Shown here piece by piece: positions 574 to 42,734 of a DNA stretch of 64,000 nt. Below the pieces are notes generated by a model. It did not search any database. It was not told where the DNA came from and saw nothing but the letters and a program-made list of their open reading frames with translations. The stretch lies in assembly GCA_965220745.1 (NCBI GenBank), contig CBDCQT010000012.1, positions 384,001 through 448,000 of the forward strand, in the 5' to 3' direction. A program made the position numbers and the translations under genes. Numbering within the stretch: the stretch's first letter is position 1; each line of letters opens with the position of its first letter. The DNA is from Alphaproteobacteria bacterium (lineage in GTDB: Bacteria > Pseudomonadota > Alphaproteobacteria > UBA828).

Positions 574-582
574 GCGCGTATC

Positions 583-843
583 ATGGCCGACATCCCGCTC
601 GCCGTGCTGCTCGAGGGCGACTACGGCTACAAGGTGCAGGTGTTCGACACCGGCGACACCATGGCGGTGCTGGCGGAGAAGGTGGCCGACCAGGTCGCGG
701 GCGTCCTGGTGGCGCCGTTCCCGCCCGAGGCGGTTCTCAGGGTCCGCGTGCAGGGCAGCGCAGACCCGCTGCCCGACGAGCTGACCATCGCCGACGCCGG
801 CTTCGTCGAGATGGAGTCCGTGGAAATCTACCGCGCCGGCTGA
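583..843 (+). CDS. Monooxygenase gamma subunit (TmoB-like)
   Basis: 86 aa directly after alpha; PL..LEGDY...DT.DTM..LAEKVA pattern of TmoB. Confidence 0.85.
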   Translation: MADIPLAVLLEGDYGYKVQVFDTGDTMAVLAEKVADQVAGVLVAPFPPEAVLRVRVQGSADPLPDELTIADAGFVEMESVEIYRAG

Positions 844-874
844 ACCAGCCGCTGCGGGCAAGGAGAAGACGAGC

Positions 875-1168
875 ATGACGACGGCAGACGACGCCGGCAA
901 TCTCGTGGGCCCCGTGATGCGCGCGGGCGACATCGCCGACGCGGTGCTCGAAGCGATCCAGGAGGACAACGAGGGGCGCGAGGTCATCACCGAGGCTCAC
1001 GCGTCCTACATCCGAATCAAGGTCGCGGACGAGTGCTTCGTGCGCTTCGAGACGGTGGGCGACGTGCTCGGCCGCACCGTCACCCGCGGCGACATCGAGG
1101 CGAACATGCCGAGCTTCGCAGGGTTCATCCGCACCGAGCCGGACGGCATCCGGTTCGTCGCGCGCTAG
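875..1168 (+). CDS. Monooxygenase effector/coupling protein (TmoD/MmoB/DmpM family)
   Basis: VGPVMRAGDIADAVLEAI.EDN...YIRI...MPSFAGFI motif; AGGAGA RBS. Confidence 0.9.
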   Translation: MTTADDAGNLVGPVMRAGDIADAVLEAIQEDNEGREVITEAHASYIRIKVADECFVRFETVGDVLGRTVTRGDIEANMPSFAGFIRTEPDGIRFVAR

Positions 1169-1179
1169 GAGGCTGTACC

Positions 1180-2169
1180 GTGACGGTCGAAGTCAAAGGC
1201 ATGAAGACGTGGAGCGGCCTCGCCAAGAAGAGGCGGCGGCCCAGCGAGTACGAAGTCGTCACCACCAACCTGCAGACCCGCACGCGGCACCCGGACCAGG
1301 CCTACGAGCTCTCGCCGGCGCCGGACCTGGGGATGAACCAGTTCTACAAGCAGAACGTCTCCGAGAGCCCGCTGCAGCATCCGGACTGGGAGGGTTTTCG
1401 GGACCCGGACGAGATGATCTATCGCGTCTACACGCGGATTCAGGACCAGCAGGAGCAGTACGTCGACGGCCTGCTCGACGAGCACAACGAGATCGGCCAC
1501 GACGCGACGCTCAGCGACGCGTGGCTCGACGCGCTGGAGCGGCTCTACACGCCCCGGCGCTTCCTTCAGATGGCGCTCCAAATGGGCGCGGCCTACCTGG
1601 TGCAAATTGCGCCGGCGAGCACGATTACCGCCTGCGCCGGGTTCCAGGACGGCGACGAGTTCCGCTGGCTCTCCCGCTGTGCCTACCGGGCGCGCGAGCT
1701 TCAGCGCGCGCACCCTTCGCGCGGCTTCGGCCAGACCGAGCGCCGCACCTGGGAGGAAGAGCCTGCGTGGCAGGGCTTCCGCGAGCTGCTGGAGAAGACG
1801 CTTGCCACCTACGACTGGGGCGAGCACTTCGTCGCGCTCAACCTGGTAGCGAAGCCGGCGGCGGACGAGGCGCACCGGCAGCTCGGCCGCATCGGGCGCC
1901 GCTTCGACGACGGGCTGCTCGGGCTGCTCGCCGACAACCAGATGCGGGACAGCGAGCGCTCACGGCGCTGGAGCGCGGCGCTCGTCGCCTTCTCGCTGGA
2001 GAACGAGGCGAACGCCGCCGTCCTCAACGGCTGGATCGAGAAGTGGATGCCGCTCGCGCGCCAGGCGGTCACGGCCTACTGCGGCGCCCTGCCCGAGCAG
2101 GACGACGCGACGGACGCGGCGCTTGCCGCAGTCGAGGCCTTCCACCGGAGCTTGGGACTCGACGCCTGA
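1180..2169 (+). CDS. Monooxygenase hydroxylase beta subunit (TmoE-like)
   Basis: GTG at 1180 after AGGAGG; KTWS.L..RRRPSEYEVVT, W..FRDPD...Y, WQGFREL.EK.L..YDWGE motifs. Confidence 0.92.
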   Translation: MTVEVKGMKTWSGLAKKRRRPSEYEVVTTNLQTRTRHPDQAYELSPAPDLGMNQFYKQNVSESPLQHPDWEGFRDPDEMIYRVYTRIQDQQEQYVDGLLDEHNEIGHDATLSDAWLDALERLYTPRRFLQMALQMGAAYLVQIAPASTITACAGFQDGDEFRWLSRCAYRARELQRAHPSRGFGQTERRTWEEEPAWQGFRELLEKTLATYDWGEHFVALNLVAKPAADEAHRQLGRIGRRFDDGLLGLLADNQMRDSERSRRWSAALVAFSLENEANAAVLNGWIEKWMPLARQAVTAYCGALPEQDDATDAALAAVEAFHRSLGLDA

Positions 2170-2181
2170 GCCTCTACGCCC

Positions 2182-2886
2182 TCACCACGGGATGATGGTG
2201 CGCTCCGGCGCGTGCCAGAAGGCGGGCTGCGCGCCGGGCTCGACAGGCTCGACCTGATCGATTCGCTCGATCAGGGCGGCGGCGGCGTCCTCCGGCGGGC
2301 GCGCTTCCTGGCGCTCGTCGTCGAAGGTCATGGCGGTCGCCACCATGCCGGGGTGCAGGACCACCGCAGCGATGCCGCGCTGCGCGAGATCATGGGCGAG
2401 GTTGACCGCCACCATGTTGGCCGCGCACTTGGAGATGCGGTAGCCGTAGAGCCCGCCCGACTTATTGTCGCCGAGCGAGCCGATCCGGCTGGTGATGAAG
2501 GCGACCGTTGATCCGGGTTTCAGCTGGCCCAGCAGGGCTTCGGTCACGCGAAGGGGCCCGAGCGTGTTGACCTCGATTTGTCGGCGGATGGCATCGTAGT
2601 CGAGCGCGCCCAACGCGTCGCGCACCGCGATCCCGGCGTTGTTGATGAGCACGTCGATGGTGGTGTCCGTGCCGGCGAGCCTCCCCACGAGGGCCTGCAC
2701 CGCCTCGTCAGAGGTCACGTCCACGTCGGGCTCGACCCGGATGCCGAGCGCCCGTAGCGCGTCCGAGTCATCCAGGCAGGCCGCGATCACGGTGTCGCCG
2801 CGCGCGCGGTAAGCGCGGCAGAGCGCGTTGCCGATGCCGCGATCGGCGCCCGTGACCAGGACGACGCTCACGGCGCGGCCCGCCAC
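2182..2886 (-). CDS. Short-chain dehydrogenase/reductase
   Basis: TGADRGIG, INNAG and YRISK motifs; start may be GTG at 2871. Confidence 0.88.
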   Translation of the reverse strand: MAGRAVSVVLVTGADRGIGNALCRAYRARGDTVIAACLDDSDALRALGIRVEPDVDVTSDEAVQALVGRLAGTDTTIDVLINNAGIAVRDALGALDYDAIRRQIEVNTLGPLRVTEALLGQLKPGSTVAFITSRIGSLGDNKSGGLYGYRISKCAANMVAVNLAHDLAQRGIAAVVLHPGMVATAMTFDDERQEARPPEDAAAALIERIDQVEPVEPGAQPAFWHAPERTIIPW

Positions 2887-2901
2887 CCCGGCCGACGCCG
2901 C

Positions 2902-4917
2902 TTAGGCGACGCGGAGCGTGGGCTGCTCGTTGCGCGCCTGCCCCGGCACCTCCCAGTGGGCCGCGGTGCGGCGCCGCAGCATGTCGCGGAACTGCCGGGT
3001 GGTGTTGGGCAGAAGCTCGCCCGTGCCCCAGTCCACGATCACGCCGTACTGTCGGATCAGGTCGAGCGCGTCGAGCTCCTTGCTGCGGTACTTGGCCGCG
3101 ATGTCTTCCGCATCCACGTCGAGCCAGGCGTGGCGTTGCGCTCGGATGCGCTCGCGCTCGGCCGCGGTCGCTGCCTCGTCCACCTCGTATTCGGCGAGGT
3201 CGGCATCGATCTCGCGGACCACGACGCCGTAATCCTTCTTCGCCCGCTCGATGGAGACGTAGCCGTCGGCCACGTCCTCGCACACGGTTGCGGGATCGCG
3301 CGTGAGGGGGTCGCCGAGGCCGCCGCCGCCGGCGGACGGCCGGGTCACGGTATCGCCGGCCTCCACCGGCACGCCGGAGAAGATCGAGCCCAGGTAACGC
3401 TCGCCCTGCGTGCCGGGATTGACCCAGACGCCGTGCGGAATCGAAGGCAGCCCGCCCCAGAGGCCCCAGGTCACCGAGCGCTCGCGGTCGCAGCAGTAGG
3501 AGACCACCGAGCGCTCCGCCTTGGTGAGGATCGCGCCCTTCTCGACGCCGAGGCCGCCGCGCGAGTTGCCCGGCCCGCCGGAATCGACGATGAGCTCGTG
3601 GCCGGTGGTCAGCACCGGGGCGAGCCGCTCCTGCCCCTCGAAGGGCTGGGTGCCGAGCTGGACGCCGAAGACCGGCCCGGTGGCGCCCCAGCCGTCGCGG
3701 CCGTTGCGCGCGCCCCAGCCGCCCACCATCCAGTCGTACCACATGAAGTAGGGGCGGTCCTCCTTGCGGCCGTCGCGCCCGCCGATCAGCAGGTATTCGA
3801 GGTTGAAGGTGCAGGCCATGGCGCGCTCGGGCAGGATTTCGGCCCAAAGCTCGAACACCGAGTTCATGATCTTCTCGAAGGGGCCCGAGCAGAAGCCGGC
3901 AACCGGCGTCGGCCAGTCCGCGTTGACCACGGTGCCCTTCGGTCCGAGGTCCACGGTGACCACCCGGTAGAAGCCGGAGTTCAGCGGGATGTCGGGCGAT
4001 TGCATCTTGGTGCCGGCGACGATGGCCGCGAACGCGCCGCCGTAGCAGCAGTTGAGGAAGGTCGAGATCGTCTTCGGGTGCGAGCCGGAGAGGTCGTAGT
4101 GCACGCTGTCGCCGTCGATGGTCATCTTGATGCGGATCGGGATCAGCCCCTCGCCGGCGACCGGGTCCACGTCGATGTAGTCCTCGGTCTCCCACACGCC
4201 GTCGGGCAGCCTGGCGATGCGCTGGCGGGTCAGCGTCTCGACGTAGTCCTGCACTTCGGCGAAGGAGGTCTGGATCACGTCGACGCCGTACTTGTCACAG
4301 AGCCGGCCGACCTCCCGCTCGGCGACGTTGCAGGCCTCCGCCTGGGCCTGGAGGTCGCCGATGATGTCGGCGGGCGCGCGGGTGTTGTTGGCGATCAGCT
4401 CGGCCACGTCGGAGAGGTATTCGCCCTTGCTGTAGACCCGGACCGGCGTGATGCGCAGCCCCTCGGCCATGTGGTCGAGCGCGCTCACGTTGAAGGAGCC
4501 CGGCACCGCGCCGCCGACATCGGCCCAATGCCCGTTGGCCTGGGAGAAGCCCAGGTGGATGCCCTTGTAGAAGATGGGGCGGACGATGCGCGTGTCGTTG
4601 AAGTGGGTGCCGCCCTGGTAGACATCGTTGACGACGAAGGTATCGCCGGGGTGGATGTCATCGCCGAACTTGTTGATGACGGCCTGGGCGGTGTAGTGCA
4701 GCGTGCCCACGTGGGCGGCGATGTCGCCCGAGCCCTGCATGATGGTGTTGCCTTCGGTGTCGCAGATCGCCGAGGAAAAATCCCGGGACCAGATCACGAA
4801 GGAGTAGCAGGTGCGGAAGATCTGCTCCGCCATCTGGTCGACGATGTTGACGTAGGCGTTCTTGAGCACCTCGAAGGTCACGGGGTCGAGCGTGTAGCCT
4901 TCTCCGTTCTTGCTCAT
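2902..4917 (-). CDS. Hydantoinase B/oxoprolinase family subunit
   Basis: LDPVTFEVL, RDFSSA, NDVYQGGTHFND, GHWADVGGAVPGS, DSGGPG..RGGLG, GGGGLGDP; ATG at 4917 after GAGGAAGAG. Confidence 0.93.
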   Translation of the reverse strand: MSKNGEGYTLDPVTFEVLKNAYVNIVDQMAEQIFRTCYSFVIWSRDFSSAICDTEGNTIMQGSGDIAAHVGTLHYTAQAVINKFGDDIHPGDTFVVNDVYQGGTHFNDTRIVRPIFYKGIHLGFSQANGHWADVGGAVPGSFNVSALDHMAEGLRITPVRVYSKGEYLSDVAELIANNTRAPADIIGDLQAQAEACNVAEREVGRLCDKYGVDVIQTSFAEVQDYVETLTRQRIARLPDGVWETEDYIDVDPVAGEGLIPIRIKMTIDGDSVHYDLSGSHPKTISTFLNCCYGGAFAAIVAGTKMQSPDIPLNSGFYRVVTVDLGPKGTVVNADWPTPVAGFCSGPFEKIMNSVFELWAEILPERAMACTFNLEYLLIGGRDGRKEDRPYFMWYDWMVGGWGARNGRDGWGATGPVFGVQLGTQPFEGQERLAPVLTTGHELIVDSGGPGNSRGGLGVEKGAILTKAERSVVSYCCDRERSVTWGLWGGLPSIPHGVWVNPGTQGERYLGSIFSGVPVEAGDTVTRPSAGGGGLGDPLTRDPATVCEDVADGYVSIERAKKDYGVVVREIDADLAEYEVDEAATAAERERIRAQRHAWLDVDAEDIAAKYRSKELDALDLIRQYGVIVDWGTGELLPNTTRQFRDMLRRRTAAHWEVPGQARNEQPTLRVA

Positions 4918-4939
4918 TGTCTCTTCCTCGCTCTCTGCG

Positions 4940-6994
4940 TCAGCCTTCGGCCTGCGGGATGTGCATGACGATGGTGTGCCAGGGGTCGACCTCGGCCTTG
5001 AGGCCGGGCGGCACCAGCACCGTTGAATCGAGCTGCTCGATGATTGCCGGCCCTTCGACCACCGCGCCGGCATGCAGGGCGTCGCGGTCGTAGATGGGCG
5101 TCATGATCGGATCGGGCGCCTCGTCGAAGACCACCAGCCGCTCGGTCTCGGGCTCCGGCGCCGAGCGGTCCATCTCTTCCCTGGCGAACTCGGCCTTCTG
5201 CGAGAGCCCGGTGGCGGTGACGGTGAGGCGGTAAATCTCGACCGGCGCGTCGGGCCTGGAATAGTTGTGCTCGCGGCCGTGCTCCTCGTGGAACTGGGCG
5301 ATCGCCGCATCCAGCGAGCCGGCAGTCGCGTCCACCTTGATCGACATGGAGCGCCACTGGCCGAGATAACGCATGTCGACGAAGCGCTCGAACTGCATGC
5401 GGTCTTCGGTCACGCCCTCGTGCAGCAGCCGCTCGCGGCCTTCGTCTTCCAGCGTGCTGAAGGTCTGCTCGATCTCCTCGACCTTCGCCTCGTCGGTGGA
5501 GCGCAGATACATCTGCGACATGTCGTGCTTGATATCCACCAGCAGGCAGCCGAGGGCGGACGTGACGCCGGGGTTCGGCGGCACCAGCACGGTCGGGATC
5601 GAGAGGTCGCGGGCGAGCGCCACGCCGTGCAGCGGCCCGGCGCCGCCGAAGACGGTGAGCGCGAAGTCGCGCGGGTCGTAGCCCCGCCGGATCGAGACCA
5701 GGCGCACGGCGTCCGCCATGTTGGCGTTCGCCACCTGGAGGATGGAGACCGCAGCCTCCTGCACCGTGAGCCCGAGCGGGTCGGCGATGCGGCGCTTGAT
5801 CGCCTCCTCGGCGAGCGAGCGGTCCAACGTGACCGCACCGCCCGCGAGCCGGTCGCTGATGCGGCCGAGAACGATGTTGGCATCGGAGTTGGTGGGTTCC
5901 ACGCCGCCCCGGCCGTAGCAGGCGGGTCCGGGCGACGAGCCCGCCGACTGCGGCCCGTTGCGGAGCGAATTGGCCTCGTCGATCCAGGCGAGCGAGCCGC
6001 CGCCCGCGCCGATGGTCAGCACCTCGATGCTGGGGAAGCAGATCGGGTAGCCGTACTGCACGTACCAGTCGGTGGTGACGCGGAGGTTGCCCCGGTCGCA
6101 GAGCGAGACGTCGGTGCTGGTGCCGCCCATGTCGAGGCTGATGGAGTTCTCGTAGCCCGCGAGCTGGGCGACGAAGCGGCTCGCGATGGCGCCCGCCGCG
6201 ATGCCCGAGGCGGCGAGCCGGGCCGCGAATTTCGATGCCGTGCTCTCGGTCATCACGCCGCCGCCGGAGTGCAGCAGCAGGATGTCCTCCTCGTAGCCGC
6301 CTTCGCGGAGCCGCGTAGCGAGCCGGCCCACGTAATCGCCGGCAACGGGGGCAAGCACCGCGTTGGCCACGGTCGTGGAGAAGCGCTCGTGCTCGAAGAT
6401 CTCGGGCATGATCTCGCTGGAGAGCGAGATGGACGCGCCGGGCACTTCCTCCTCGAGGATGTCGCGCATGCGGCGCTCGTTCTCGGGGTTGGCGAAGGCG
6501 TTGGCGAAGCAGACCGCGATGGTCGTAACCCCGCGCTTGTTGATGATGCGCGCAGCCTCGCGCGCCTCGGCCTCGTTCACTGGCTCGATGATCGTGCCGC
6601 TGTAATCGATGCGCTCGCTGACCACCAGGCGGTTGCGGCGCTGGATGTAGGGCGGCGCCATCTCCTTGTAGGTGTCCCACAGGTCGTCGCGGGTGCCGCG
6701 CCGGATCTCGATCACGTCGCGGAAGCCCTTGGTGGTGACCATGATCGCGGGCGGGAAGTTGCGCGTGATCAACGCGTTGGTGGCGAGCGTGGTGCCGTGG
6801 GCGAAGAGCACCATGTCCTGGAGGTCCACCCCGCCGGCCTTGATGCCCTCTAGCACGCCGTCGATCGGATCCGGCGTCGTCGGGGTCTTGGCGACGCGCA
6901 TCTGGCCGCTCGCTTCGTCCAGGACGCACACGTCGGTGAAGGTGCCACCGACATCGCACGCGACGCGAACGGCCGCCCTCGAAACGTCATTCAT
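4940..6994 (-). CDS. Hydantoinase A/oxoprolinase family ATP-binding subunit
   Basis: DVGGTFTD, HGTTLATN, DMGGTSTD, IGAGGGS, GPQSAG..PGPACY and FGGAGPLH motifs. Confidence 0.94.
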   Translation of the reverse strand: MNDVSRAAVRVACDVGGTFTDVCVLDEASGQMRVAKTPTTPDPIDGVLEGIKAGGVDLQDMVLFAHGTTLATNALITRNFPPAIMVTTKGFRDVIEIRRGTRDDLWDTYKEMAPPYIQRRNRLVVSERIDYSGTIIEPVNEAEAREAARIINKRGVTTIAVCFANAFANPENERRMRDILEEEVPGASISLSSEIMPEIFEHERFSTTVANAVLAPVAGDYVGRLATRLREGGYEEDILLLHSGGGVMTESTASKFAARLAASGIAAGAIASRFVAQLAGYENSISLDMGGTSTDVSLCDRGNLRVTTDWYVQYGYPICFPSIEVLTIGAGGGSLAWIDEANSLRNGPQSAGSSPGPACYGRGGVEPTNSDANIVLGRISDRLAGGAVTLDRSLAEEAIKRRIADPLGLTVQEAAVSILQVANANMADAVRLVSIRRGYDPRDFALTVFGGAGPLHGVALARDLSIPTVLVPPNPGVTSALGCLLVDIKHDMSQMYLRSTDEAKVEEIEQTFSTLEDEGRERLLHEGVTEDRMQFERFVDMRYLGQWRSMSIKVDATAGSLDAAIAQFHEEHGREHNYSRPDAPVEIYRLTVTATGLSQKAEFAREEMDRSAPEPETERLVVFDEAPDPIMTPIYDRDALHAGAVVEGPAIIEQLDSTVLVPPGLKAEVDPWHTIVMHIPQAEG

Positions 6995-7100
6995 TCCTAA
7001 CGGTCCTCTCCCTTATGTCCCTGCAACCGAAGGCTGCCGCCGCGCGCGGCGGCACAGCTTATGCGGAAGGCGCCCCGAGACCTAGAGCGAGAAAATCGCC

Positions 7101-7979
7101 CTAACACTTGAGGATGCGGCGGGCATTCTTGCCGGCGATGGCGGGGCGGAGCGCGGTCCACGCGTTGAACAGCGCCTCGTGAGCCTGCCAGGTTTCGTGG
7201 CTCAGGATGCGGACAATCACCAGGTCGCCGATGCGGGTGACGCCGGCCTCGGTGCCGTCCACGCCCGAGATCGCCTCGTGCACGTCGTCCTCGACATCCG
7301 GTGGCAGGTCCGGCGCGTAGCCGAACGCCATTGCCATGTGCAGCCGGCCGAGCCAGAGCCGCTGCAGCGCGGCGATGGTCTCGGGCGTGGTCGCCACCAG
7401 GCGGTCGAGGGCGACCAGGCGGCCGCCGATGACGATGCGGAACTCCGAGACCAGATGGTGGAAGCGGAAGACCTCGCCGTCGCCGTAGTGCACGCGGCCG
7501 GCCGAGACCATGTCGGTGGCGAAGAGCCGGGACGAGGGCTCCAGCGCGATCCGGTTGAGCCGGTGCACCCGGCTGCGGGCGAAGGGAATCGCCTCGTCCG
7601 GGCAGAACTCCAGCAGCGCGTCCGCGCCCACGTGGAGGTCCACGATCTCGCGCGAGACGGCGCCGTCCGGGCACTTGTAGAACTTGCTCGACGCGGTGGT
7701 GGTGAAGAGGGCGCGGGTGCCGGGCTCCAGCACGCCGTGGAAGTGCGAGACGTCGCCCTCGACGAAGCCGCCGCCGCTGTTCACCAGCAGCATGAACGGC
7801 TGGTCGTCGTGGTCCTGGTAGTGGTAGCCCTGCCACTGGAACGGGATGCGCCAGCAGAGCGGGTCGATTTCCGTGCGGCCGAGCCTGCTCGACGCGCGGA
7901 CGTTCATCAGCGCGTACTTACCGACGATCCATTCGGGATCAGGCTGTACCGGCGCGCTGCTCGGCTCCGTCATGCCCAT
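7101..7979 (-). CDS. ureD: Urease accessory protein UreD/UreH (divergent)
   Basis: [35 protein letters not shown] motifs; overlaps ureG. Confidence 0.85.
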
Positions 7980-8583
7980 CCATCAGGAGAACGTCGCGCT
8001 CGATCCAGGCGATCACTTCGGCAAGGCCATCGCCGGCGCGCAGGTTGGTGAAGAGGAAGGGCCGCGTGCCCCGCATCTTCCTGGAATCCCGCTCCATCAC
8101 GCCCAAGTCGGCGCCCACCATCGGTGCGAGGTCGATCTTGTTGATGACCAGCAGCGGCGACTTGGTGATGCCGGGCCCGCCCTTGCGCGGGATCTTGTCG
8201 CCCTCGGCCACGTCGATCACGTAGATGTAGCTGTCCACCAGCTCGGGGCTGAAGGTCGCCGCGAGGTTGTCGCCGCCGCTCTCGACGAAGACGATGTCGA
8301 GGTCGGGATGCAGCGCCGCCATCTCCTCGATGGCATGCGCGTTCATCGAGACGTCCTCGCGGATGGCGGTGTGCGGGCAACCGCCGGTCTCGACGCCGGC
8401 CACGCGCTCGGGCGCGATGGCGCCCGACTTGATGACGAATTCGGCGTCTTCCTTGGTGTAGATGTCGTTGGTGATGGCGGCCAGCGAGTGGTCCGGCCCC
8501 ATGCTGCGGCAGAGCGACACCAGCAGCGCCGTCTTGCCCGACCCCACCGGCCCGCCGATGCCGATCCTGACCGGCTTGCGCAT
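7939..8583 (-). CDS. ureG: Urease accessory GTPase UreG
   Basis: [41 protein letters not shown]. Confidence 0.96.
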
Positions 8584-8658
8584 CCGCAAGTCTCCCCGTT
8601 TTCCTGCGTCTAACGTCGCGTTTCCGAAACGAAAGAGCAGAGTGCTCCCGTCCCCGTC

Positions 8659-8750
8659 TCGTCATGGCCGGGCTTGACCCGGCCATCCACTCGCGCATCC
8701 CGGTCTTGCTTGGACCGACTGGATGCCCGGATCAAGTCCGGGCATGACGA
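8659..8750. repeat. Alphaproteobacterial intergenic palindromic (REP/RPE-like) element
   Basis: TCGTCATGGCCGGGCTTGACCCGGCCATCCA ... TGGATGCCCGGATCAAGTCCGGGCATGACGA: two self-palindromic arms that are inverted copies of each other. Confidence 0.85.
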
Positions 8751-8800
8751 CAGGAGGTCGATGGCACCCGTGCGCATTTTCAAGACACGACGCCAGACTA

Positions 8801-9499
8801 TCACGACATGCAAAGCCGCGTGTGCAGGCGCTCGTGCCGCATGCTGGCGACATCGAGGCCGGCGGTGGCGCTCCCGAGAGCGTCCAGCTCCATGGCGCAG
8901 GCGTCCTCGGTGCCTTGGGTCAGCAGCGGCCAGGCCTCCTTCACGATGCGCTGGCTCTCGATCTGGCCGAGCGGGATCAGCCGCGCGCCGACGCTGACGA
9001 GGTTGGAGAGCGCCGCGTGAAGGAAGGCGAGCACCGCGTCCGCCGTGCCGATGCCTTGCGCCTCCGCCGCCGCGCCGAAGATCACCGCCTGATGGCCCTC
9101 GCAGCGCCCGTCGCGCACAGCCTCTGCAAAGGGCGCGAGGGGCTCGCCCGAGAAGACGTCGCGGTAGGCGCCGAGCAGCGCGCGGCCGGTCTTGAACGAG
9201 GCCTCGCGCGCTTCCCGACTGAGCTTGAGCGCGCCCACGATGCGGTCGAGGTCCACCAGCCCGTCGAGATCGCCTGCGGCGGCGCGGCGGTGGGCGTGGG
9301 CGACTGCGGCGCCATCGGTGGGCGCGGCGGCGTAGCGGAGCCAGTCCCGGCAGGCTCCCTCGAAGCTTGCGGCGTCGTCCAGCGCGCCCGAGTCGATCCA
9401 GGTCTCAAAGCCGTAGGAATGGTTGAACGCGCCGGTCGGGAACGAGGCGTTCGCCACCTGCAGCAGGTAGAGGAGCCGGTCCGGCGCGTCAGTGGTCAT
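8801..9499 (-). CDS. ureF: Urease accessory protein UreF
   Basis: LLQVANASFPTGAFNHSYGFE, RLIPLGQ, C-terminal HERLHTRLCMS; start 9499 or 9511. Confidence 0.92.
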   Translation of the reverse strand: MTTDAPDRLLYLLQVANASFPTGAFNHSYGFETWIDSGALDDAASFEGACRDWLRYAAAPTDGAAVAHAHRRAAAGDLDGLVDLDRIVGALKLSREAREASFKTGRALLGAYRDVFSGEPLAPFAEAVRDGRCEGHQAVIFGAAAEAQGIGTADAVLAFLHAALSNLVSVGARLIPLGQIESQRIVKEAWPLLTQGTEDACAMELDALGSATAGLDVASMRHERLHTRLCMS

Positions 9500-9971
9500 G
9501 GTGATGGCCATGGTGATCGTGGTGATGGTGGGCGCCGTGGGCGCCGTATCGGCGGCCGACGAAGGGGATCGTGCGTTCCTCGTAGGCGATGCCGAGGCGC
9601 ATGAGCAGGTCGGCCACCATGGGATCGGCCGGGGTCAGCATCCCCTCGTCGGTGAAGCGGACGGGCCGGTGCAGGTTGCCGAGCTGATAGCCGGCGACGC
9701 CCCAGGTGTAGGCATCGTCCGGGCTGACGACGTAGAGCGCCTCCGGCGCGGCGCGCGCCACGACCGCCGTGGTGCCCTCCAGCGCCAGCACGTCGCCGTC
9801 GTTGATCTCGGTGCCGCGCGGGAGCGAGATGCGCACGTCGCGCCCGCCCTCGGAGCGCCCGACGAGATGGGCGCTGGCGCGTTCCTCCGAGTTGAGCAGG
9901 ACCGGGTCCTCGCTCTCGATCTTCTCGCGCAAGGTTTCGACCGTGCCGAGGACCGCGGTGACGACCGCCAT
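9489..9971 (-). CDS. ureE: Urease accessory nickel chaperone UreE
   Basis: LPRG...DGDVL, YQLGNLHRP, His-rich tail AHGAHHHHDHHGHHHDH. Confidence 0.9.
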   Translation of the reverse strand: MAVVTAVLGTVETLREKIESEDPVLLNSEERASAHLVGRSEGGRDVRISLPRGTEINDGDVLALEGTTAVVARAAPEALYVVSPDDAYTWGVAGYQLGNLHRPVRFTDEGMLTPADPMVADLLMRLGIAYEERTIPFVGRRYGAHGAHHHHDHHGHHHDH

Positions 9972-9995
9972 GCGTGCCGTCGCCTCTGCCGCCCC

Positions 9996-11702
9996 TTAGC
10001 GGAAGTAGAAGAGCTGGGTCAGCGGCAGGGTCTTGGCCGGCTTCACCGTGATGCGCTCGCCATCGACGTAGACGTTGTAGGTCTCGGGGTCGATCTCGAT
10101 ATCGGGCAGCGCGTCGTTGTGGATCATGTCGCGCTTGGAGATGGTGCGGCAGCGCTTCACCGGCACCAGCGTCTGGGTCTCGATCCGGTCCGCAAGGCCG
10201 TTGTCGAGCGCCGCCTTGGTGACGAAGGAATAGCTCGTCCGCTTCGGGTTGACGCCGAGGGAGCCGTACTGCGGGCGGTACTTGAGCGGCTGGCCGGTCA
10301 TCAGCGAGCCCGCCGGGTCGCCCATCACCGCGTGCGAGATGAAGCCGCCCTTCAGCGTCACCTCGGGCTTGGCGATGAAGAACTCGGGCCGCCAGAACAC
10401 CAGGTCCGCCAGCTTGCCGGGCGTGATCGAGCCCACGTAGGAATCGACGCCGAAGCAGATCGACGGGTTGATCGTCACCTTGGCCAGATAGCGCTTGATC
10501 CTGAAGTTGTCGTTGTCCGAGCCGTCCTCCGAGAGCCGCCCGAAGCGCACCTTGTTCACCGCCGCGAGCTGGAAGGAGCGCTGCGCGCTCTCCGCCGCGC
10601 GGCCCACGCCCTGGCTGTCGGAGCCGATCATGCTGATCGCGCCCATGTCGTGCAGCACGTCCTCGGCCCGCATGGTCTCCGCCCTGGCCCGGCCCTGAAT
10701 GAAGGCGATGTCCGTCGGCACGCTCTTGTTCAGGTTGTGGCAGGTGATCAACATGTCGATCTCTTCGTCGTACGTGTTGATCGAGAACGGGTTGGTCGGG
10801 TTGGTCGAGCTTGGCAAGAGGTTGGGCTCGCCGCAGACCCGCATCATGTCCGGCGCGTTGCCGCCTCCCGCGCCCTCGCAGTGGTAGATGTGCATGACGC
10901 GGCCGTTGATGGCGGCGATGGTGTCCTCGTAGTAGCCGGTCTCGTTCAGCGTGTCGGCGTGAATCTGGACCTGGAAGTCGTACTCGTCCGCAAGCTCCAT
11001 GGTGGTCTCGATGGCGGCGGGCGATGACGACCAGTCCTCGTGAATCTTGAGCCCCGTGGCGCCGGCCAGGATCTGCTCCACCAGCGAGCCCGGCGTCGCC
11101 GCGTTGCCCTTGCCGAAGTTGCCGAAGTTCAGCGGGATGTCCGCCATCGCCTCCAGCATGCGCTGGATGTTGAACACGCCGGGGCACTCGATGCCCACCG
11201 TCTTCGGCCCCGAGCCGCCGCCGATCACCGTGGTGAAGCCCGCGTTCTGATACTCGTAAAGCTGCTGCACGGAATCGAAGTGGGGGTGGATGTCGACGAA
11301 GCCCGGCGTGCAGATCATCCCCTCCACCGAGAGGATGTCGGTGTTGGGCGAGACGATCAGCCCCGGCGTGATGTTCATGGTGTCCGGGTTGCCGGACTTG
11401 CCGACGCCGACGATCTCGCCGTCCAGCACGCCGATGTCGCCCTTCACGACGCCGAGGATGGGGTCGATGATCACCGCGTTGGTGATCACCATGTCGAGCC
11501 CGCCGTCGCTCTGCTTCCACTTCGACGCCTGGCCCATGCCGTCGCGGATGGTCTTGCCGCCGCCGAAGACGAGCTCGTCGCCGTAGGTGGTGTAGTCGTG
11601 CTCGATCTCGGCCACGAGGCCGGTGTCGGCGAGGTGAATCTTGTCTCCGGTGGTCGGCCCGTACTGCGCGGCGTAGTCCGGGCGGGCGATCTTCATGCTC
11701 AT
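9996..11702 (-). CDS. ureC: Urease alpha subunit homologue (divergent active-site pocket)
   Basis: YGPTTGD, FGGGKTIRDGMGQ, DIHPH, GLKIHEDW, HADTLNE, HCEGAGGG, SDSQ, DNDNFRIKRYLAK. Confidence 0.95.
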   Translation of the reverse strand: MSMKIARPDYAAQYGPTTGDKIHLADTGLVAEIEHDYTTYGDELVFGGGKTIRDGMGQASKWKQSDGGLDMVITNAVIIDPILGVVKGDIGVLDGEIVGVGKSGNPDTMNITPGLIVSPNTDILSVEGMICTPGFVDIHPHFDSVQQLYEYQNAGFTTVIGGGSGPKTVGIECPGVFNIQRMLEAMADIPLNFGNFGKGNAATPGSLVEQILAGATGLKIHEDWSSSPAAIETTMELADEYDFQVQIHADTLNETGYYEDTIAAINGRVMHIYHCEGAGGGNAPDMMRVCGEPNLLPSSTNPTNPFSINTYDEEIDMLITCHNLNKSVPTDIAFIQGRARAETMRAEDVLHDMGAISMIGSDSQGVGRAAESAQRSFQLAAVNKVRFGRLSEDGSDNDNFRIKRYLAKVTINPSICFGVDSYVGSITPGKLADLVFWRPEFFIAKPEVTLKGGFISHAVMGDPAGSLMTGQPLKYRPQYGSLGVNPKRTSYSFVTKAALDNGLADRIETQTLVPVKRCRTISKRDMIHNDALPDIEIDPETYNVYVDGERITVKPAKTLPLTQLFYFR

Positions 11703-11725
11703 GCTCTGGCTCCCTGCTCCTGACC

Positions 11726-12235
11726 TCAGTCGCCGTCTTTGCCGCCGCCGAACTTCTCGTCCGGCGGGGTCTGGACCGGATAGCGCTCGCCCTCGAAGCA
11801 GTAGCCCTCGGCCCTGAGGCGGCGCATGGTCTGCTCCTTGATGATGCCGGAGCGGACCGAGCCGTTGGTCATGTTGTTCATGCCGTAGGCGACCTGGCGG
11901 CCGACGTAGCCGGTGATCTGCACCTTGCGGCTCTGGCCGGGCTCGAAGCGCACCGCGCTGCCGGATGGCACGTCGAGGCGCATGCCGAACGCCGCCTCAC
12001 GGTCGAAGGCCATCGCCCTGTTGCACTCGGCGAGGTGGTAGTGGGCGCCGATCTGGATCGGCCGGTCGCCGGTGTTGACCATGACGATCTCGATCGCGGG
12101 GCGATCGGCATTGATCTCGATGTCGCCGTCGGCGAAGTCGATGGCGCCGCACTTCTCCGGCTCGCCCACCTCGAACGCCTCGTCCGGCACGATCGATTCC
12201 GGCAGCGGCGGCGGGCTCCATTTTCTCTTAGCCAT
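11726..12235 (-). CDS. ureB: Urease beta subunit
   Basis: NTGDRPIQIGAHYH..E.N, GMRLDVPSGSAVRFEPG. Confidence 0.93.
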   Translation of the reverse strand: MAKRKWSPPPLPESIVPDEAFEVGEPEKCGAIDFADGDIEINADRPAIEIVMVNTGDRPIQIGAHYHLAECNRAMAFDREAAFGMRLDVPSGSAVRFEPGQSRKVQITGYVGRQVAYGMNNMTNGSVRSGIIKEQTMRRLRAEGYCFEGERYPVQTPPDEKFGGGKDGD

Positions 12236-12260
12236 GGCTGTTCTCCACGCTTGGCCCGCG

Positions 12261-12572
12261 CTACTCGCGGATCGGGTTCATCACCGTGACGAGCTTGGTC
12301 CCGTCGGGGAACATGGCTTCGACCTGGACGATCTTCATCATCTCGGGCACGCCCGTCATCACGTCGTCCCGCTTCAGGATGGTGGCGCCGTACTCCATCA
12401 TGTCGGTCAGCATGGGGATGCTGCCCTCGCGCGCGCGCTCGAGAATCTCGTCGCAGATCAGCGCAATCGCCTCGGGGTAGTTCAGCTTGACGCCGCGATC
12501 GAGGCGCCGCCGGGCCATCTCTGCCGCGGCCCAAATCTGTATCCGTTCTTCTTCCCTAACAGTGAGATGCAT
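12261..12572 (-). CDS. ureA: Urease gamma subunit
   Basis: ATG at 12572; MHLT.REEE...RGVKLNYPEAIALI...VQVEAMFPDGTKLVTV.NPI. Confidence 0.94.
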   Translation of the reverse strand: MHLTVREEERIQIWAAAEMARRRLDRGVKLNYPEAIALICDEILERAREGSIPMLTDMMEYGATILKRDDVMTGVPEMMKIVQVEAMFPDGTKLVTVMNPIRE

Positions 12573-12844
12573 AAGCCCCCACTCCCTTTCGCTCGCGCCA
12601 CGCTTGAGGACCAGGCGAGCGCCCGGCCCTTGGTGATCGACGGCCCGATGGGCAGCCGCCGAGAGGGTATACCGCGAGGCGTACGAAGGGAAAGCGTGTC
12701 GCAGGAGAGCCGGCCCACACGCTGCCGAATGGCGAGCGGCGCGCGCTTGGCGTAGATTTATGCGTGGAGGATCGTTCGCGGCGGACCGGCTTCGGGGCCG
12801 CCCGCCCGCGCAGTAAGTAACCAGTGAAACGGAGTCACGCTTCC

Positions 12845-14134
12845 ATGACAGACGGTTCAACCGGCAACGGTGCCAAAGGCCCGCGCGTGGTCGTCGTCGG
12901 CGGATCGATGGGCGGCCTGCTCGCCGGTAGCATGCTCTACCGCGCCGGCTGCGACGTAACGGTGCACGAGCGCATCGGCACCGAGCTCGCCGAGCGGGGC
13001 GTCGGCATCGCGACCCACCCGGAGCTTCACGCCGCGCTCGAGAGCCTGGGGCTTTCCATCGACGGGGCGTACGGCGCGCGGCTCGAGGAGCGCATCACCC
13101 TCGGCACCGACGGCAGCATTCTCGCGCGCTATCACTGTCCCCAGATACAGGCATCCTGGGGGCACCTCTACGGCCTGCTGCGCAGCAACTTTCCCGACGA
13201 ACGCTACATCGGCGGCGCCAACTTCACAGGCTTCGAGCCCCACGGCGAAGGCGTGCTCGCGCACTTCGAGGACGGCACCAGCATCGAGGCCGATCTTCTG
13301 ATCGGCGCCGATGGCGTGCGCTCCACCGTGCGTCCCCAGCTCTGGCCGGATGCGGTGCCGCAGTACGCAGGCTATGTGGCCTGGCGCGGCATCGTCGATG
13401 AGGACCAGCTCTCGGCGGAATGGCGCGACATGCTGATGGCGCACTTCATCGTCTACCTGCCGCCAGGCGAGCATGTGGTCGCCTACCCGGTGGCGGGCGC
13501 GGACGGCGAGCTCAGCCCCGGCAAGCGCCGCTTCAACATCGTCTGGTACACGCTGACCACGGCCGAGAAGCTGCGGCAGATGCAGACCGACGCCACCGGC
13601 CACCATCACGAGGCGGGGATCGCGCCGCACCTCATCCTCCCGTCGTTCGTCGATGAGGTCCATCAAGCGGCGGCCGAGCGCCTGCCGCCCTGCCTCGCCG
13701 AGCCGATGACCCTCGCGCAAGGGCTATTCTTCCAGACCATCGTGGACCTGGAGGTGCCCCGGATGGTGCAGGGGCGCGTGGCCATGCTGGGCGACTCGGC
13801 GTTCTCCGCCAGGCCGCACACCGGCATGGGCGTGGTCAAGGCGACCGGCGATGCGAACTCTCTCGCCCGGGCCATCGAGGGCCATCCCGGCGATCTCGCG
13901 GGCGCGCTCTCGGCCTACGACGAGGAGCGGACCCTCTATGGCCGCTCCCTGGTCCGCTTCGGCCGCCGCCTGGGCACCCATATCGAGACCCCGGAGCGGA
14001 GCGCCGAGGACTGCGCCTTCGGCGACTACCTGCGCGAGCCCTTGACGGTGATCCAGGCCATCTCGATCCCGCCGCCCTGCTCACCGCTCGCGGCGTTCAG
14101 GGACGACCCGGAGATCGCCTGCGGGCAGCGTTAG
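12845..14134 (+). CDS. FAD-dependent monooxygenase (2,6-dihydroxypyridine 3-monooxygenase-like)
   Basis: VVGGSMGGL, GADG.RS.VR, YAGYVAWRG, R.N.VWY, LGDSAF.ARPHTG.G..KA. Confidence 0.88.
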   Translation: MTDGSTGNGAKGPRVVVVGGSMGGLLAGSMLYRAGCDVTVHERIGTELAERGVGIATHPELHAALESLGLSIDGAYGARLEERITLGTDGSILARYHCPQIQASWGHLYGLLRSNFPDERYIGGANFTGFEPHGEGVLAHFEDGTSIEADLLIGADGVRSTVRPQLWPDAVPQYAGYVAWRGIVDEDQLSAEWRDMLMAHFIVYLPPGEHVVAYPVAGADGELSPGKRRFNIVWYTLTTAEKLRQMQTDATGHHHEAGIAPHLILPSFVDEVHQAAAERLPPCLAEPMTLAQGLFFQTIVDLEVPRMVQGRVAMLGDSAFSARPHTGMGVVKATGDANSLARAIEGHPGDLAGALSAYDEERTLYGRSLVRFGRRLGTHIETPERSAEDCAFGDYLREPLTVIQAISIPPPCSPLAAFRDDPEIACGQR

Positions 14135-14146
14135 CCCGGTGCGGGC

Positions 14147-15595
14147 TCAGCCGGCCGGGCGCTCCACGGCGCGGAAGGGGTGGCGGGCCCGCAGCGTGTT
14201 CACCGCGTCGAAGATGGCCGGGAAGGTCGGCCGCTCCACGTAGGCGCCGTCGCCCTGGTCGGCGCGAATCTCCGAGCCGTCCCAGACATGCCGGCCCCGG
14301 CTCACGGTGGCGCGCGCGACGCCGGTCACCGTCATCCCCTCGTAGATGTTGAAGTCGTTGTTCTGGAGGTGGGTCTTGGCCGAGATCGTGCGCGTGGCCT
14401 TGGGGTCCCAGACCACGATATCCGCGTCCGCACCCACCTTGATCGCCCCCTTGCGCGGATAGATGTTGAAGATCTTCGCGGCGTTGGTGGACGTGATCGC
14501 GACGTACTCGTTGGCCGTGATCCGGCCAGTCTCGACACCCTGGTCCCAGAGCACCGACATGCGGTCCTCGATGCCGCTGGTGCCGTTCGGAATCTTCGAG
14601 AAATCGTCCTTGCCCATCTCCTTCTGCCAGTTGCAGTAGGCGCAGTGATCGGTCCCGGTGGTCTGCAGGTTGCCGGATTGCAGGCCGCGCCAGAGGTCCT
14701 CCTGATGGTCCTTGGGTCGGAACGGCGGGCTCATCACGAAGCCGCGGGCGACCTCCGGGTTGGGGTCGTAGTAGACGCTCTCGTCGATTACCAGGTGCTG
14801 CGCCAGGCACTCGCCGTAGACGCGCTGCCCCTCCAGCCTGGCGCGGGTGATCGCCTCCAGCGACTCCCGGCAGGTCACGTGGACGATGTAGATCGGCGCC
14901 TTGAGCAGCTGGGCGATGCGGATCGCACGGTTGGTGGCCTCGCCCTCGACCTCCGGCGGGCGCGACTGCGGGTGGCCTTCCGGCCCGGTGATGCCGGCCT
15001 TGAGCAGCTCCTGCTGCATCATCCAGACCAGGTGGCCGTCCTCGCAGTGGACGGTGCAGAGCGCGCCGAGATCCCGCGCCCGCGCGAAGCTGTTCATCAT
15101 CTTCTCGGCGTCGAGCATGACCTCGCCCTTGTAGGCCATGAAGTGCTTGAAGCTGTTGACGCCGTGATCGCGGGTCAGCGTCTCCATGTCCTCGTGAATT
15201 TCGTCGTTCCAGTTGGTGATGGCGACGTGGAAGGAATAGTCCGACGGCGCCTTCGCCGCGCGCTGCTGCCAGATCCGATAGGCATCCATCGGCCGCTGGT
15301 CCGGCGCCGGAATCACGAAGTCGATGATCATGGTGGTCCCGCCCGAGAGGCCGGCGGCGGGGCCGGTATAGAAGTCGTCGCCGGTCACGGTATCCATGAA
15401 CGGCGTTTCCATATGGGTGTGGGGGTCGATGCCGCCCGGCATGACCAGCGCGTCTCCGGCATCCACCGTCGTCGTGCCCGCGGGCACGTCGAGCCCGGTG
15501 CCGATTTCCTGAATCTTGCCGTCCGCGCAATAGATGTCGGCGACGTAGCGCTCGTCTGCGGTCACCACCGTGCCACCCTTGATCAGCGTCGACAT
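14147..15595 (-). CDS. hydA: Dihydropyrimidinase / D-hydantoinase
   Basis: PGGIDPHTH, GVNSFKHFMAYK, VHCEDG, TDHC, IPNG..GIEDRM; ATG at 15595 after GGGAGG. Confidence 0.93.
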   Translation of the reverse strand: MSTLIKGGTVVTADERYVADIYCADGKIQEIGTGLDVPAGTTTVDAGDALVMPGGIDPHTHMETPFMDTVTGDDFYTGPAAGLSGGTTMIIDFVIPAPDQRPMDAYRIWQQRAAKAPSDYSFHVAITNWNDEIHEDMETLTRDHGVNSFKHFMAYKGEVMLDAEKMMNSFARARDLGALCTVHCEDGHLVWMMQQELLKAGITGPEGHPQSRPPEVEGEATNRAIRIAQLLKAPIYIVHVTCRESLEAITRARLEGQRVYGECLAQHLVIDESVYYDPNPEVARGFVMSPPFRPKDHQEDLWRGLQSGNLQTTGTDHCAYCNWQKEMGKDDFSKIPNGTSGIEDRMSVLWDQGVETGRITANEYVAITSTNAAKIFNIYPRKGAIKVGADADIVVWDPKATRTISAKTHLQNNDFNIYEGMTVTGVARATVSRGRHVWDGSEIRADQGDGAYVERPTFPAIFDAVNTLRARHPFRAVERPAG

Positions 15596-15744
15596 GGCTG
15601 CCTCCCTTCCCGGCGCGGTCGATGCCGGCGTCACGGCGCCTCCCTGGCAGGCCGGGCCGGACCGTTGCCGCGCGATATCCGCTGCCCCACACTACCCTAT
15701 CTGTGGCACACAGTTGCGATCTTCGCCGAAGGGGAGGGCCGAGG

Positions 15745-20578: not shown

Positions 20579-21787
20579 GTGTCTCCGCGAGGAGTTGCCT
20601 GGATGAACCGGACGATGTGGCTACAGGAGCGCAGGATGGAGAAGCTTTGCGATGTGCTGGGACGCTTCGAGGCGAAGCGTTTGTCGGCGCTGGATGCGGC
20701 GGAGCTGCTGGGGATGTCGGAGCGCAGCTTCCGGCGCTGCCGGCGGCGCTACGAAGCGGAAGGTCTGGACGGCCTGTTCGACCGCCGGCTCGGCAAGGCG
20801 TCGTCGCGCCGGGTCTGTGTGGATCGGATCGAGTGGGTGCTGGAGCAGTACCGCACCCGCCATGTCGGCTGGACGGTCAAGCATTTCCACGACCATCTGC
20901 GCGCGCATCACGGCTTTCACTTGAGCTACAGCTGGACCAAGACGGTGTTGCAGCGTGCGGGGCTGGTGACCCGGGCGGCACGCCGCGGGGCGCATCGCCG
21001 GCGGCGGCCGCGCAAGCCGTACCGCGGCATGATGCTGCATCAGGACGGCTCGCGTCACGCGTGGCTGGCCGGCCGGGCGCCGCTCGATCTGATCGTCACC
21101 CCGGACGACGCCACCTCGGAGATCTACTCGGCCTTCCTGGTCGAGGAGGAAGGCACGGCCTCGACCTTCCGGGCGCTCAAGCAGGTGTTCACCGAGCACG
21201 GCCTGCCCGGCGCGCTGTACACCGACCGCGGCAGCCACTACTTCCACACCCCCGAGGCCGGCGGCAAGGTCGACAAGGGCCGGCACACCCAGGTCGGGCG
21301 CGCCCTGCACCAGCTCGGCATCGAGCACATCGCCGCCTACTCCCCCGAGGCGAGGGGTCGCTCGGAGCGCGCCTTCGGCACCCTCCAGGACCGCCTGGTC
21401 AAGGAGCTGGCGCTGGCCGGCATCGACACCGTCGAGGCTGCCAACCGCTTCATCGAAGAGCGCTACCTGCCCGACCACAACCGCCGCTTCGCGATCCCGC
21501 CCGAGCTCGACGAGACCGCCTTCGTGCCGCTGGTCCGGCCCGACCAGATCGACGACATCCTCTGCCTGCATGCTGAGCGCGTGGTCGCCCGCGACAACAC
21601 CGTGCGCTACGCCAGGCGGGTCTTGCAGCTCCCCGCCGGCCCCGATCGCCCGCACTACGTCAAGGCGAAGGTCCGGGTGCACGAGTATCCCGACGGCACG
21701 CTCGCCGTCTTCCACGGACCCAGGTGCCCGGCCCGCTACCACGCCGATGGCGAACCGTTCGTAACTCCAAACCGGAAGGCCGCGTGA
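20579..21787 (+). CDS. ISNCY/IS1202-type DDE transposase
   Basis: MLHQDGS.H.W, DDATS, YTDRGSHY, AYSPEARGRSERAFGTLQDRL; start may be 20602. Confidence 0.92.
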   Translation: MSPRGVAWMNRTMWLQERRMEKLCDVLGRFEAKRLSALDAAELLGMSERSFRRCRRRYEAEGLDGLFDRRLGKASSRRVCVDRIEWVLEQYRTRHVGWTVKHFHDHLRAHHGFHLSYSWTKTVLQRAGLVTRAARRGAHRRRRPRKPYRGMMLHQDGSRHAWLAGRAPLDLIVTPDDATSEIYSAFLVEEEGTASTFRALKQVFTEHGLPGALYTDRGSHYFHTPEAGGKVDKGRHTQVGRALHQLGIEHIAAYSPEARGRSERAFGTLQDRLVKELALAGIDTVEAANRFIEERYLPDHNRRFAIPPELDETAFVPLVRPDQIDDILCLHAERVVARDNTVRYARRVLQLPAGPDRPHYVKAKVRVHEYPDGTLAVFHGPRCPARYHADGEPFVTPNRKAA

Positions 21788-42691: not shown

Positions 42692-42734
42692 AGTGGCTCG
42701 ATACTGGGGGGTCACAATTGCACGCCGGGCAACA
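42643..42734. mobile_element. IS21-like end / miniature remnant at the mnmA breakpoint
   Basis: Ends GGGGGTCACAATTGCACGCCGGGCAACA (IS21-type ...ACA terminus); begins TGTTGTTCGGC, an imperfect inverted match. Confidence 0.55.

Follow-up and report, generated by a model that had tools for sequence, protein, structure and literature searches.

The window analysed here, a 64,000-nucleotide stretch of alphaproteobacterial DNA (contig CBDCQT010000012.1 of assembly GCA_965220745.1, positions 384,001 to 448,000), carries a complete urease operon whose catalytic subunit, UreC, belongs to a distinct group of sequences that we labeled clade X. We put at about one half the probability that clade X is an amidohydrolase of the urease family that has become adapted to a small analogue of urea. 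The system itself is an intact one of the nickel-urease type, and its clade is separate, conserved and mobile. The mobile flap and the second shell have been rebuilt, and the pocket of the importer found near many clade members is unlike that of UrtA, the urea-binding protein.

The operon consists of the following genes:

9996..11702, minus strand: ureC-like catalytic (alpha) subunit of clade X; 568 amino acids, ATG start; Pfam Urease_alpha and Amidohydro_1
11726..12235, minus strand: ureB (beta subunit); 169 amino acids; PF00699 128 bits, residues 30-125
12261..12572, minus strand: ureA (gamma subunit); 103 amino acids; PF00547 133.7 bits; start MHLTVREE, purine-rich stretch upstream
9489..9971, minus strand: ureE; UreE_N and UreE_C; His-rich C-terminal tail
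8801..9511, minus strand: ureF, start codon uncertain; PF01730 141.9 bits
7939..8589, minus strand: ureG GTPase, start codon uncertain; PF02492 134 bits; P-loop and Cys-Pro-His motif
7101..7979, minus strand: ureD; PF01774 144.5 bits

The genes lie on one strand in the order ureABCEFGD (7101-12572). A preliminary description of this DNA had placed ureC at 9996..11702 and stated that the maturation genes are kept. Both statements hold: the ureC frame is ATG-started and on the minus strand, as are the maturation genes ureE, ureF, ureG and ureD that come after it. Because the GC content at third codon positions (GC3) of ureC is 0.96 in a window of 68% GC, the reading frame is real. The two Pfam domains of UreC score 157 bits (PF00449) and 197 bits (PF01979). 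UreB exceeds the 98-position Pfam domain at both ends, and its clade relatives are 164-178 amino acids long; UreA of clade relatives likewise has 103 amino acids.

Clade X and its active site

Database searches returned relatives of the window UreC at 68-99% identity, followed by a gap down to a group at 62%. From species-representative genomes we kept 80 loci; 67 of these, many on short contigs, belong to clade X (74-100% identical). Record titles of clade members name Rhodospirillales, Hyphomicrobiales (Methylopila, Hansschlegelia, Hyphomicrobium, Mesorhizobium, Chelatococcus and Ancylobacter), Rhodobacteraceae, Burkholderiales, a gammaproteobacterial metagenome-assembled genome, Mycobacterium and Thermoleophilia. 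The clade spans Alpha-, Beta- and Gammaproteobacteria and Actinomycetota. Between its groups UreC identity is 79-89%, whereas UreD, UreE and UreF share only about 40-60%, which means strong constraint on the catalytic subunit together with horizontal spread.

A UreC tree had been named in the preliminary description as the way to see whether this sequence sits in a clade of its own, and it does. In a tree of 70 rows (IQ-TREE, quick search, LG+G4), the 27 rows of clade X are monophyletic (SH-aLRT 100), and their stem of 0.42 changes per site is the longest internal branch. Representatives at 50% identity, taken from an all-against-all HMMER comparison, were too coarse, as ureases collapse at that level (the best was 54% identical), and supplied distant outgroups only.

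Alignment to solved ureases places the nickel ligands of the window UreC at H139/H141, K219, H248, H274 and D362. The substrate and flap positions are H221, D223, C321/H322 and R338, which we take to correspond to His219, Asp221, the flap pair Cys319-His320 and Arg336 in K. aerogenes numbers. The ligand strings DIHPH, GLKIHEDW, HADTLNE, HCEG and SDSQ are present, as is the flap Cys-His, so that all six metal ligands, the flap pair and the following Arg (in QGRARAET) are there as originally described. The altered strings quoted in that description also occur in the translation without exception (GGGSGPKTVGIECPG, EEIDMLITCHNL, MGDPAGSLMTGQP, SDSQGVGR, GGGNAPD and EDWSS), and the Klebsiella-type strings that it had used as reference could be verified in chain 8hcn_C (GGGTGPAAGTHATTCTPG, EHLDMLMVCHHL, MGDINASIPTPQP, HEDWGAT, GGGHAPD and SDSQAMGR).

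Compared with canonical UreABC (Klebsiella aerogenes, Sporosarcina pasteurii; 8hcn, 1ejw, 1s3t), whose alpha subunit is about 55% identical to the window UreC, clade X has the same three subunits, nickel ligands, carbamylated Lys, substrate His, flap Cys-His, Asp, Arg and UreDEFG maturation. It differs in a loop after GGG.GP that is 3 residues shorter and in SDSQ-GV instead of SDSQ-AM. The flap reads EEIDMLITCHN and AFIQGRAR, whereas canonical urease has EHLDMLMVCHH and AFAESRIR; GGGN and EDWSSS stand in place of GGGH and EDWG.., and UreB is longer.

The preliminary description had regarded all such motifs as near-invariant in ureases and changed in this protein. This applies to one part of them. 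Specific to clade X are EDWSS, HAD, GGGN, the E and I changes before the flap Cys-His and the Met-to-Val change in SDSQGV. The other part is older or shared. The shorter loop (GGG.GP.T---VGI..PG), SDSQ-G and the ...SLMT... string occur in 52 of the 70 tree rows, 25 of them outside clade X, and also in both other ureC paralogs of the window genome. Rows with the short loop include relatives source-labelled Lachnospiraceae, Oscillospiraceae, Paenibacillus, Domibacillus and Leptolyngbya. This wider lineage, of the fused ureAB-ureC type with Firmicutes- and cyanobacteria-labelled relatives, shares with clade X the 3-residue deletion, HVHFDS, SDSQG and SLMTC, but outside clade X it keeps EDWG, HTD, GGGH, CHH and AFAESRIR. 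We found no characterised member of it, and the short loop is absent from every solved urease chain whose alignment was inspected.

The solved urease of Yersinia enterocolitica (4z42, 6yl3) also has Asn after the flap His (CHN). It is the best-scoring solved relative (627.7 bits), and unlike clade X it has the long loop, EDWGA, GGGH and SDSQAM. Its gene order is presumably ureABCEFGD, as in the window. The Yersinia urease is associated with an acid pH optimum, and ureases of this acid-optimum type (Yersinia, Morganella) have Asn at position +1 and Phe at position -7 relative to the flap His. The window UreC has Asn at +1 and Ile at -7, where Yersinia has Phe.

To put the differences on a quantitative footing, 61 core clade X sequences were set against 101 further ureases of the short-loop and long-loop types. 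At 17 of the 211 positions that are at least 95% conserved in the other ureases, a different residue is fixed in clade X (other ureases to clade X: M159V, E187A, G225S, T249A, T269V, H282N, T307S, H314E, M319I, H323N, A335I, S337G, I344M, A345R, M366V, W377F and G443I). Eight of the 17 fall in the mobile flap (residues 307-345), against a background of 24/211 (p=1e-4), and seven lie at most 4 residues from a catalytic residue (hypergeometric p=0.02). In our own reading the replacements are mostly toward smaller side chains. Relative to all sampled ureases, the mobile flap and several residues flanking metal ligands are rebuilt. An earlier suggestion that the changes cluster in the pocket finds support in these flap and near-catalytic positions, although half of the changes it had quoted are ancestral or occur in a characterised urease.

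All six signature motifs are held in 66 of 87 full-length relatives of at least 68% identity, so the changes reflect neither chance nor decay; of the five clade-specific motifs, none occurs in any of the 25 proteins of the nearest 62% group. Intermediate states were found in basal members (P0087, P0088, P0091 and P0046). Under the canonical mechanism, loss of the flap His should cripple urea hydrolysis. In a derived sub-branch the flap Cys has become Val in 8 proteins, and the flap His, whose role in the urease mechanism has been discussed (PMC6077230), has become Phe jointly with a change of HEDW to HENW in 6 nested proteins (P0068, P0069, P0071, P0072, P0073 and P0078); P0086 has Gln instead of the flap His. 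The paired flap His/HEDW change recurs in several distinct sequences and thus looks selected rather than broken. Such losses of His and Cys in nested sub-branches fit a relaxed need for the canonical general acid in the lineage.

These losses, together with the absence from the window copy of an importer and regulator cassette that its close relatives have, could also be expected of a paralog that is decaying or catalytically dead and has persisted by chance. This is very improbable. The reading frame is intact with its GC3 of 0.96, no ligand has been lost, the accessory genes are likewise undamaged, and UreC has stayed 74-100% identical across phyla while the accessory proteins diverged to 40-60%. 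The preliminary description had likewise argued against decay, in agreement with the strong conservation seen here.

The linked importer and the canonical ureases of carriers

In the 67 loci, clustering of open reading frames (ORFs) revealed three kinds of neighbour of the clade X operon: a five-gene Urt-like ABC importer (35 loci), a LuxR-family regulator with an autoinducer-binding domain and GerE (25 loci), and a nickel permease of the HupE/UreJ type (14 loci). In three loci (L041, L049 and L066) the importer is inserted between ureA and ureB. All its subunits score below the curated cut-offs of the urea-transporter models (TIGR03407-03411 or archaeal-type models). The binding protein reaches 340.3 bits against a cut-off of 494.8 and 156.1 against 492.75; the values for the permeases and ATPase are 252.8/374.25 (UrtB), 327.7/575.55 (UrtC) and 267.2/285.8 (UrtE). 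In its five-gene layout and its fold family the importer agrees with UrtABCDE and the AmiC/FmdD amide-binding relatives. Unlike UrtABCDE, it falls below all urea-transporter cut-offs and replaces five contacts of the binding protein.

These contacts were compared by aligning a profile of 23 clade X binding proteins to the solved UrtA chains 7s6e, 8hic and 7s6f, and to 8tg1. The literature searched contained no paper on PDB entries 8TG1 and 9IT2. The urea contacts of Prochlorococcus UrtA are given as W120, S122, Y141, Q144, E146, Y190, N246 and S274, are described as strictly conserved across bacteria and archaea, and mutants of W120, S122 or N246 are said to bind urea not at all or far less (PMC10392092). 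Five of the eight are replaced in the clade X protein (W120Y, S122G, Y141H, N246V and S274T), and the replacements are invariant or nearly so among the 23 aligned proteins. Tyr120 and Val246 presumably make the clade X protein resemble AmiC-type amide binders, a likeness that we read from one AmiC-like row (L110). One genome (G001) encodes both types: a UrtA with all eight contacts about 9 kb from its canonical ureC, and a protein with three of eight in its clade X operon.

Two other binding proteins, L109 (G003:C3:37237-38316, 540 bits on TIGR03407) and L112 (G001:C2:252771-253850, 551 bits), are not beside any ureC. The actinobacterial carriers L053, L085 and L060 (Mycobacterium, Thermoleophilia) have a fused or extended ureB ORF of 277-293 amino acids, and a sodium:solute symporter and a GerE-type regulator upstream replace the ABC importer. 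An Rfam scan of six clade loci (130 kb) detected no riboswitch, for guanidine or otherwise. Its hits were tRNAs, one ALIL element and, at the borderline (43.5 vs 40 bits), a '5_ureB_sRNA' match within the ureC coding sequence, which was taken as an echo of that sequence. Guanidine is an unlikely substrate, as the binding protein exchanges the polar contact Asn for Val and a guanidine riboswitch is lacking in these loci.

Many carriers of clade X have a canonical urease in addition. On the NCBIfam urease-alpha equivalog TIGR01792, canonical UreC copies in related genomes score 945-1030 bits, far above the window UreC. A canonical UreC (959-1030 bits, long loop, SDSQAMGR) is present in four of the five named carrier genomes, and 16 of 36 further carrier genomes have a UreC of at least 900 bits, plus one truncated at 876 bits. 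For comparison, UreC of any kind occurs in 70 of 301 evenly sampled genomes of the window's class and canonical UreC (about 890 bits or more) in about 60 of them; scores near 745 bits were seen only in the window genome (G000) and in G053 of the same family. Carriers therefore hold canonical ureases more often than the class average and clade X is no replacement for them, although this is a weak argument because related genomes are not independent. A second ure cluster with transport genes has a parallel, by description only, in Brucella ure2. There, ure2 lies beside an active canonical cluster, is linked with transport genes (a urea channel and a nickel transporter) and is reported without active urease of its own (PMC2868824).

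Locus and genome of the window

The preliminary description had proposed looking for a second, canonical urease in the same genome. There is none: G000 has three ureC genes, and none of them is canonical. The remaining two belong to loci of the gamma/beta-fused ureAB-ureC type and share 54% and 49% identity with the window UreC:

G000:C3:136131-137831 (L001/L099): ureC paralog
G000:C7:255483-257180 (L003/L100): ureC paralog

One of the two loci has only ureF and two amidohydrolases as neighbours, and the other is without accessory genes. The C7 copy sits on a long terminal branch (0.5) and shows EDYG, with CHLL in its flap. A model search of the genome gave no UrtA and no urea carboxylase above cut-off. 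At least six UrtA-like binding proteins are encoded; none of six has the canonical urea-contact pattern. The best of them scores 432.8 bits (cut-off 492.75) and belongs to G000:C12:706077-713153 (L005, L006, L102), where two amidohydrolase-like genes, each with an in-frame TAA, adjoin and are followed by Urt-like permease and ATPase genes. This is another uptake locus of the amide/urea type.

Around the ure operon of the window the following features were mapped:

12588..12827, no strand: cassette junction; the 6.2 kb Urt-like importer plus LuxR regulator of L009 and L010 (95-96% identical) is missing in the window
4940..6994, minus strand: hydantoinase A / oxoprolinase-type subunit; Hydantoinase_A plus N and C domains; directly downstream of ureD
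2902..5073, minus strand: hydantoinase B / oxoprolinase-type subunit; PF02538 489.5 bits
14147..15634, minus strand: D-hydantoinase / dihydropyrimidinase; TIGR02033 570.7 bits vs cut-off 393.25
12824..14134, plus strand: FAD-dependent mono-oxygenase, divergent from ureA; PF22607, PF01494; NF005566 439.1 bits vs 333

According to blastn, window 2899-12587 corresponds to L010 9116-18807 and window 12828-15701 to L010 61-2923. The cassette of L010 (2924-9115) sits between ureA and the divergent FAD mono-oxygenase. L008 (93% identity) is cassette-less like the window, while L009 and L010 have the cassette.

The position of the operon between hydantoin-ring-opening enzymes raises a more specific possibility, namely that UreC performs a decarbamoylating step on their N-carbamoyl products, such as N-carbamoylsarcosine from N-methylhydantoin or N-carbamoyl-beta-alanine from dihydrouracil. 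This would be a special case of action on a small urea analogue, and we consider it unlikely; an N-carbamoyl compound was among the substrates that the preliminary description had suggested. In its favour are the D-hydantoinase/dihydropyrimidinase upstream and the ATP-dependent HyuA/HyuB-type genes directly after ureD. Besides the window, 9 of the 67 clade loci have hydantoinase A/B genes in the vicinity of the operon, in four arrangements (L009, L010, L012 and L062; fused HyuAB plus amidase in L007 and L008; L025; L067). The HyuA-type protein of the window scores 528.7 bits on the caprolactamase alpha model, below the cut-off of 1000. The habitat is also compatible, since sponge microbiomes are reported to degrade host creatinine via N-methylhydantoinase and to use host creatine, creatinine and urea with the help of this enzyme and urease (PMC6742649), which makes a nitrogen-scavenging island plausible at the window locus. 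However, 58 of the 67 clade loci lack a nearby hydantoinase yet have the same active-site signature, the clade-wide importer of urea/short-amide type is unsuited to anionic ureido acids, and adjacency may only reflect the clustering of nitrogen-scavenging genes. HyuA/HyuB adjacency was therefore dropped as a clade-wide clue, the 9 loci being mostly near relatives.

Near-identical DNA occurs in sequencing runs labelled as sponge and coral metagenomes. Contigs of four RNA libraries (sponge, coral, marine) match the ure and hyu genes at 90-99% identity; as these contigs are assembled, they speak for presence in the libraries, not as proof of transcription, operon structure or expression level, and no meaning attaches to stretches that they leave uncovered.

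Two further observations concern the flanks. Window 175-2886 and the region upstream (L101) encode a soluble di-iron mono-oxygenase cluster (YHS-domain, TmoB-like and MmoB/DmpM-like proteins and a hydroxylase subunit). A short-chain dehydrogenase/reductase (SDR) beside it has IsoH, the isoprene-pathway dehydrogenase, as its best NCBIfam match (262.8 bits, below the cut-off of 350), and the cluster could be an alkene or isoprene oxidation locus. Transposase genes lie at 20579-21787 (HTH plus a weak rve integrase-core match) and 42712-43977 (DDE_Tnp_1_4 type), which suggests that the region is prone to rearrangement.

Urea or a urea analogue

UreABC of clade X, matured by UreDEFG, is a complete nickel-dependent enzyme of the urease type. 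Since it retains the nickel ligands, the His that polarises the substrate, the flap Cys-His, Asp and Arg, it should break a C-N bond between carbonyl and amide in the way ureases do, with release of ammonia. The clade split from other ureases on a long branch and has since stayed near-constant while spreading over phyla. Enzyme and importer may have become co-adapted to a small neutral compound, possibly an N-substituted (N-alkyl) urea or ureide or a short-chain amide, and urea could still be a side substrate. In the cassette-less lineage associated with sponges and corals, the operon between hydantoin-ring-opening enzymes may act on intracellular ureido products. Dixon et al. reportedly noted in 1980 that ureases turn over formamide, acetamide and N-methylurea slowly, so a shift of preference would need no new chemistry.

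Two side issues belong here. A methylamine link (methylurea to methylamine) was considered and is anecdotal, with carriers in the methylotroph genera Methylopila, Hansschlegelia, Hyphomicrobium and Ancylobacter. An iron-urease was rejected in view of intact UreE, UreG and HupE/UreJ and the strong conservation.

The preliminary description had proposed a different, probably larger substrate. The first half of this finds support in the flap changes, in the importer contacts and in the canonical urease present in about half of the carriers. The retained urea-contacting side chains speak against it, and a larger substrate is a sensible hypothesis but no established result.

A different explanation is that clade X, though of a divergent lineage, acts on urea like any ordinary urease, and that its flap and second-shell changes adjust kinetics, pH optimum, stability or regulation. 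In that case the importer would be a divergent urea transporter, and coexistence with a canonical urease would reflect different regulation or affinity. We regard this as quite possible, somewhat below an even chance, and as a strong rival. Several findings favour it and so weigh against a non-urea substrate. The window UreC keeps every side chain known for urea contact or catalysis and passes the TIGR01792 cut-off (747.7 vs 680 bits), and the nickel maturation set and HupE/UreJ are complete. Three of the six motifs described as changed (short loop, SDSQ-G and SLMT) are, as far as the tree rows indicate, common to a large urease lineage and not special to clade X, and the active Yersinia urease also has Asn after the flap His.

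The importer and the genomes add to this side. Every importer subunit matches urea-transporter models best, and the binding protein keeps Q144, E146 and Y190 plus F192. L109 and L112 pass the UrtA cut-off yet lack Q144 and N246; the contacts are therefore not universal, and the UrtA model TIGR03407 may itself cover non-urea binders, perhaps of amides. About half of the carriers are without a canonical urease. In four of 41 other carrier genomes (G005, G323, G327 and G331) clade X is the only UreC match, and in G000 the window operon is the only complete ure operon, in a genome with no canonical UrtA and no urea carboxylase above cut-off. Relatives of the window organism live in urea-rich hosts, and the RNA-library contigs span its ure genes. 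An abundant natural urea analogue is not obvious, and we found no urease-family enzyme with a non-urea physiological substrate in the literature searched, which included few subscription journals.

An ordinary urease is harder to reconcile with the 17 flap-centred residues fixed differently where other ureases are at least 95% conserved, and with a binding protein that lacks five of eight urea contacts, including three whose mutation removes binding in UrtA. Nor does it readily explain why the one genome pairs its canonical urease, and not clade X, with a UrtA of eight contacts, why canonical ureases are commoner in carriers than in the class sample and so have not been replaced, or why nested members have lost the flap His and the Asp.

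The idea of a small urea analogue can be put more boldly. At a little under even odds in our estimate, clade X could be the first member of the urease family with a physiological substrate other than urea, a nickel amidohydrolase for an N-alkyl- or N-carbamoyl-type urea, a cyclic-ureide product or a short amide. With about the same reserve, a co-evolved importer and a ligand-sensing LuxR regulator would be part of the system, which may have spread horizontally among bacteria of soils, fresh water, the sea and hosts. Nested members without the flap His would then point to a further change of chemistry. In the full texts searched, again with few subscription journals, clade X is undescribed and has no characterised member.

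Textbooks present urease as an enzyme for urea and nothing else, and studies of oceans, soils, the rumen and symbioses widely rely on ureC as a marker of urea use. Should clade X turn out to be an ordinary urease, it would still define a urease/importer/regulator module of its own, and five of the eight UrtA contacts reported as strictly conserved would be dispensable. If it works on another compound, part of the environmental 'ureC' signal would have been misread. Methylotrophs and sponge symbionts would then have a new source of nitrogen, perhaps also of C1 units, and the rebuilt flap would offer a naturally occurring test of how specificity is determined by the pocket of urease.

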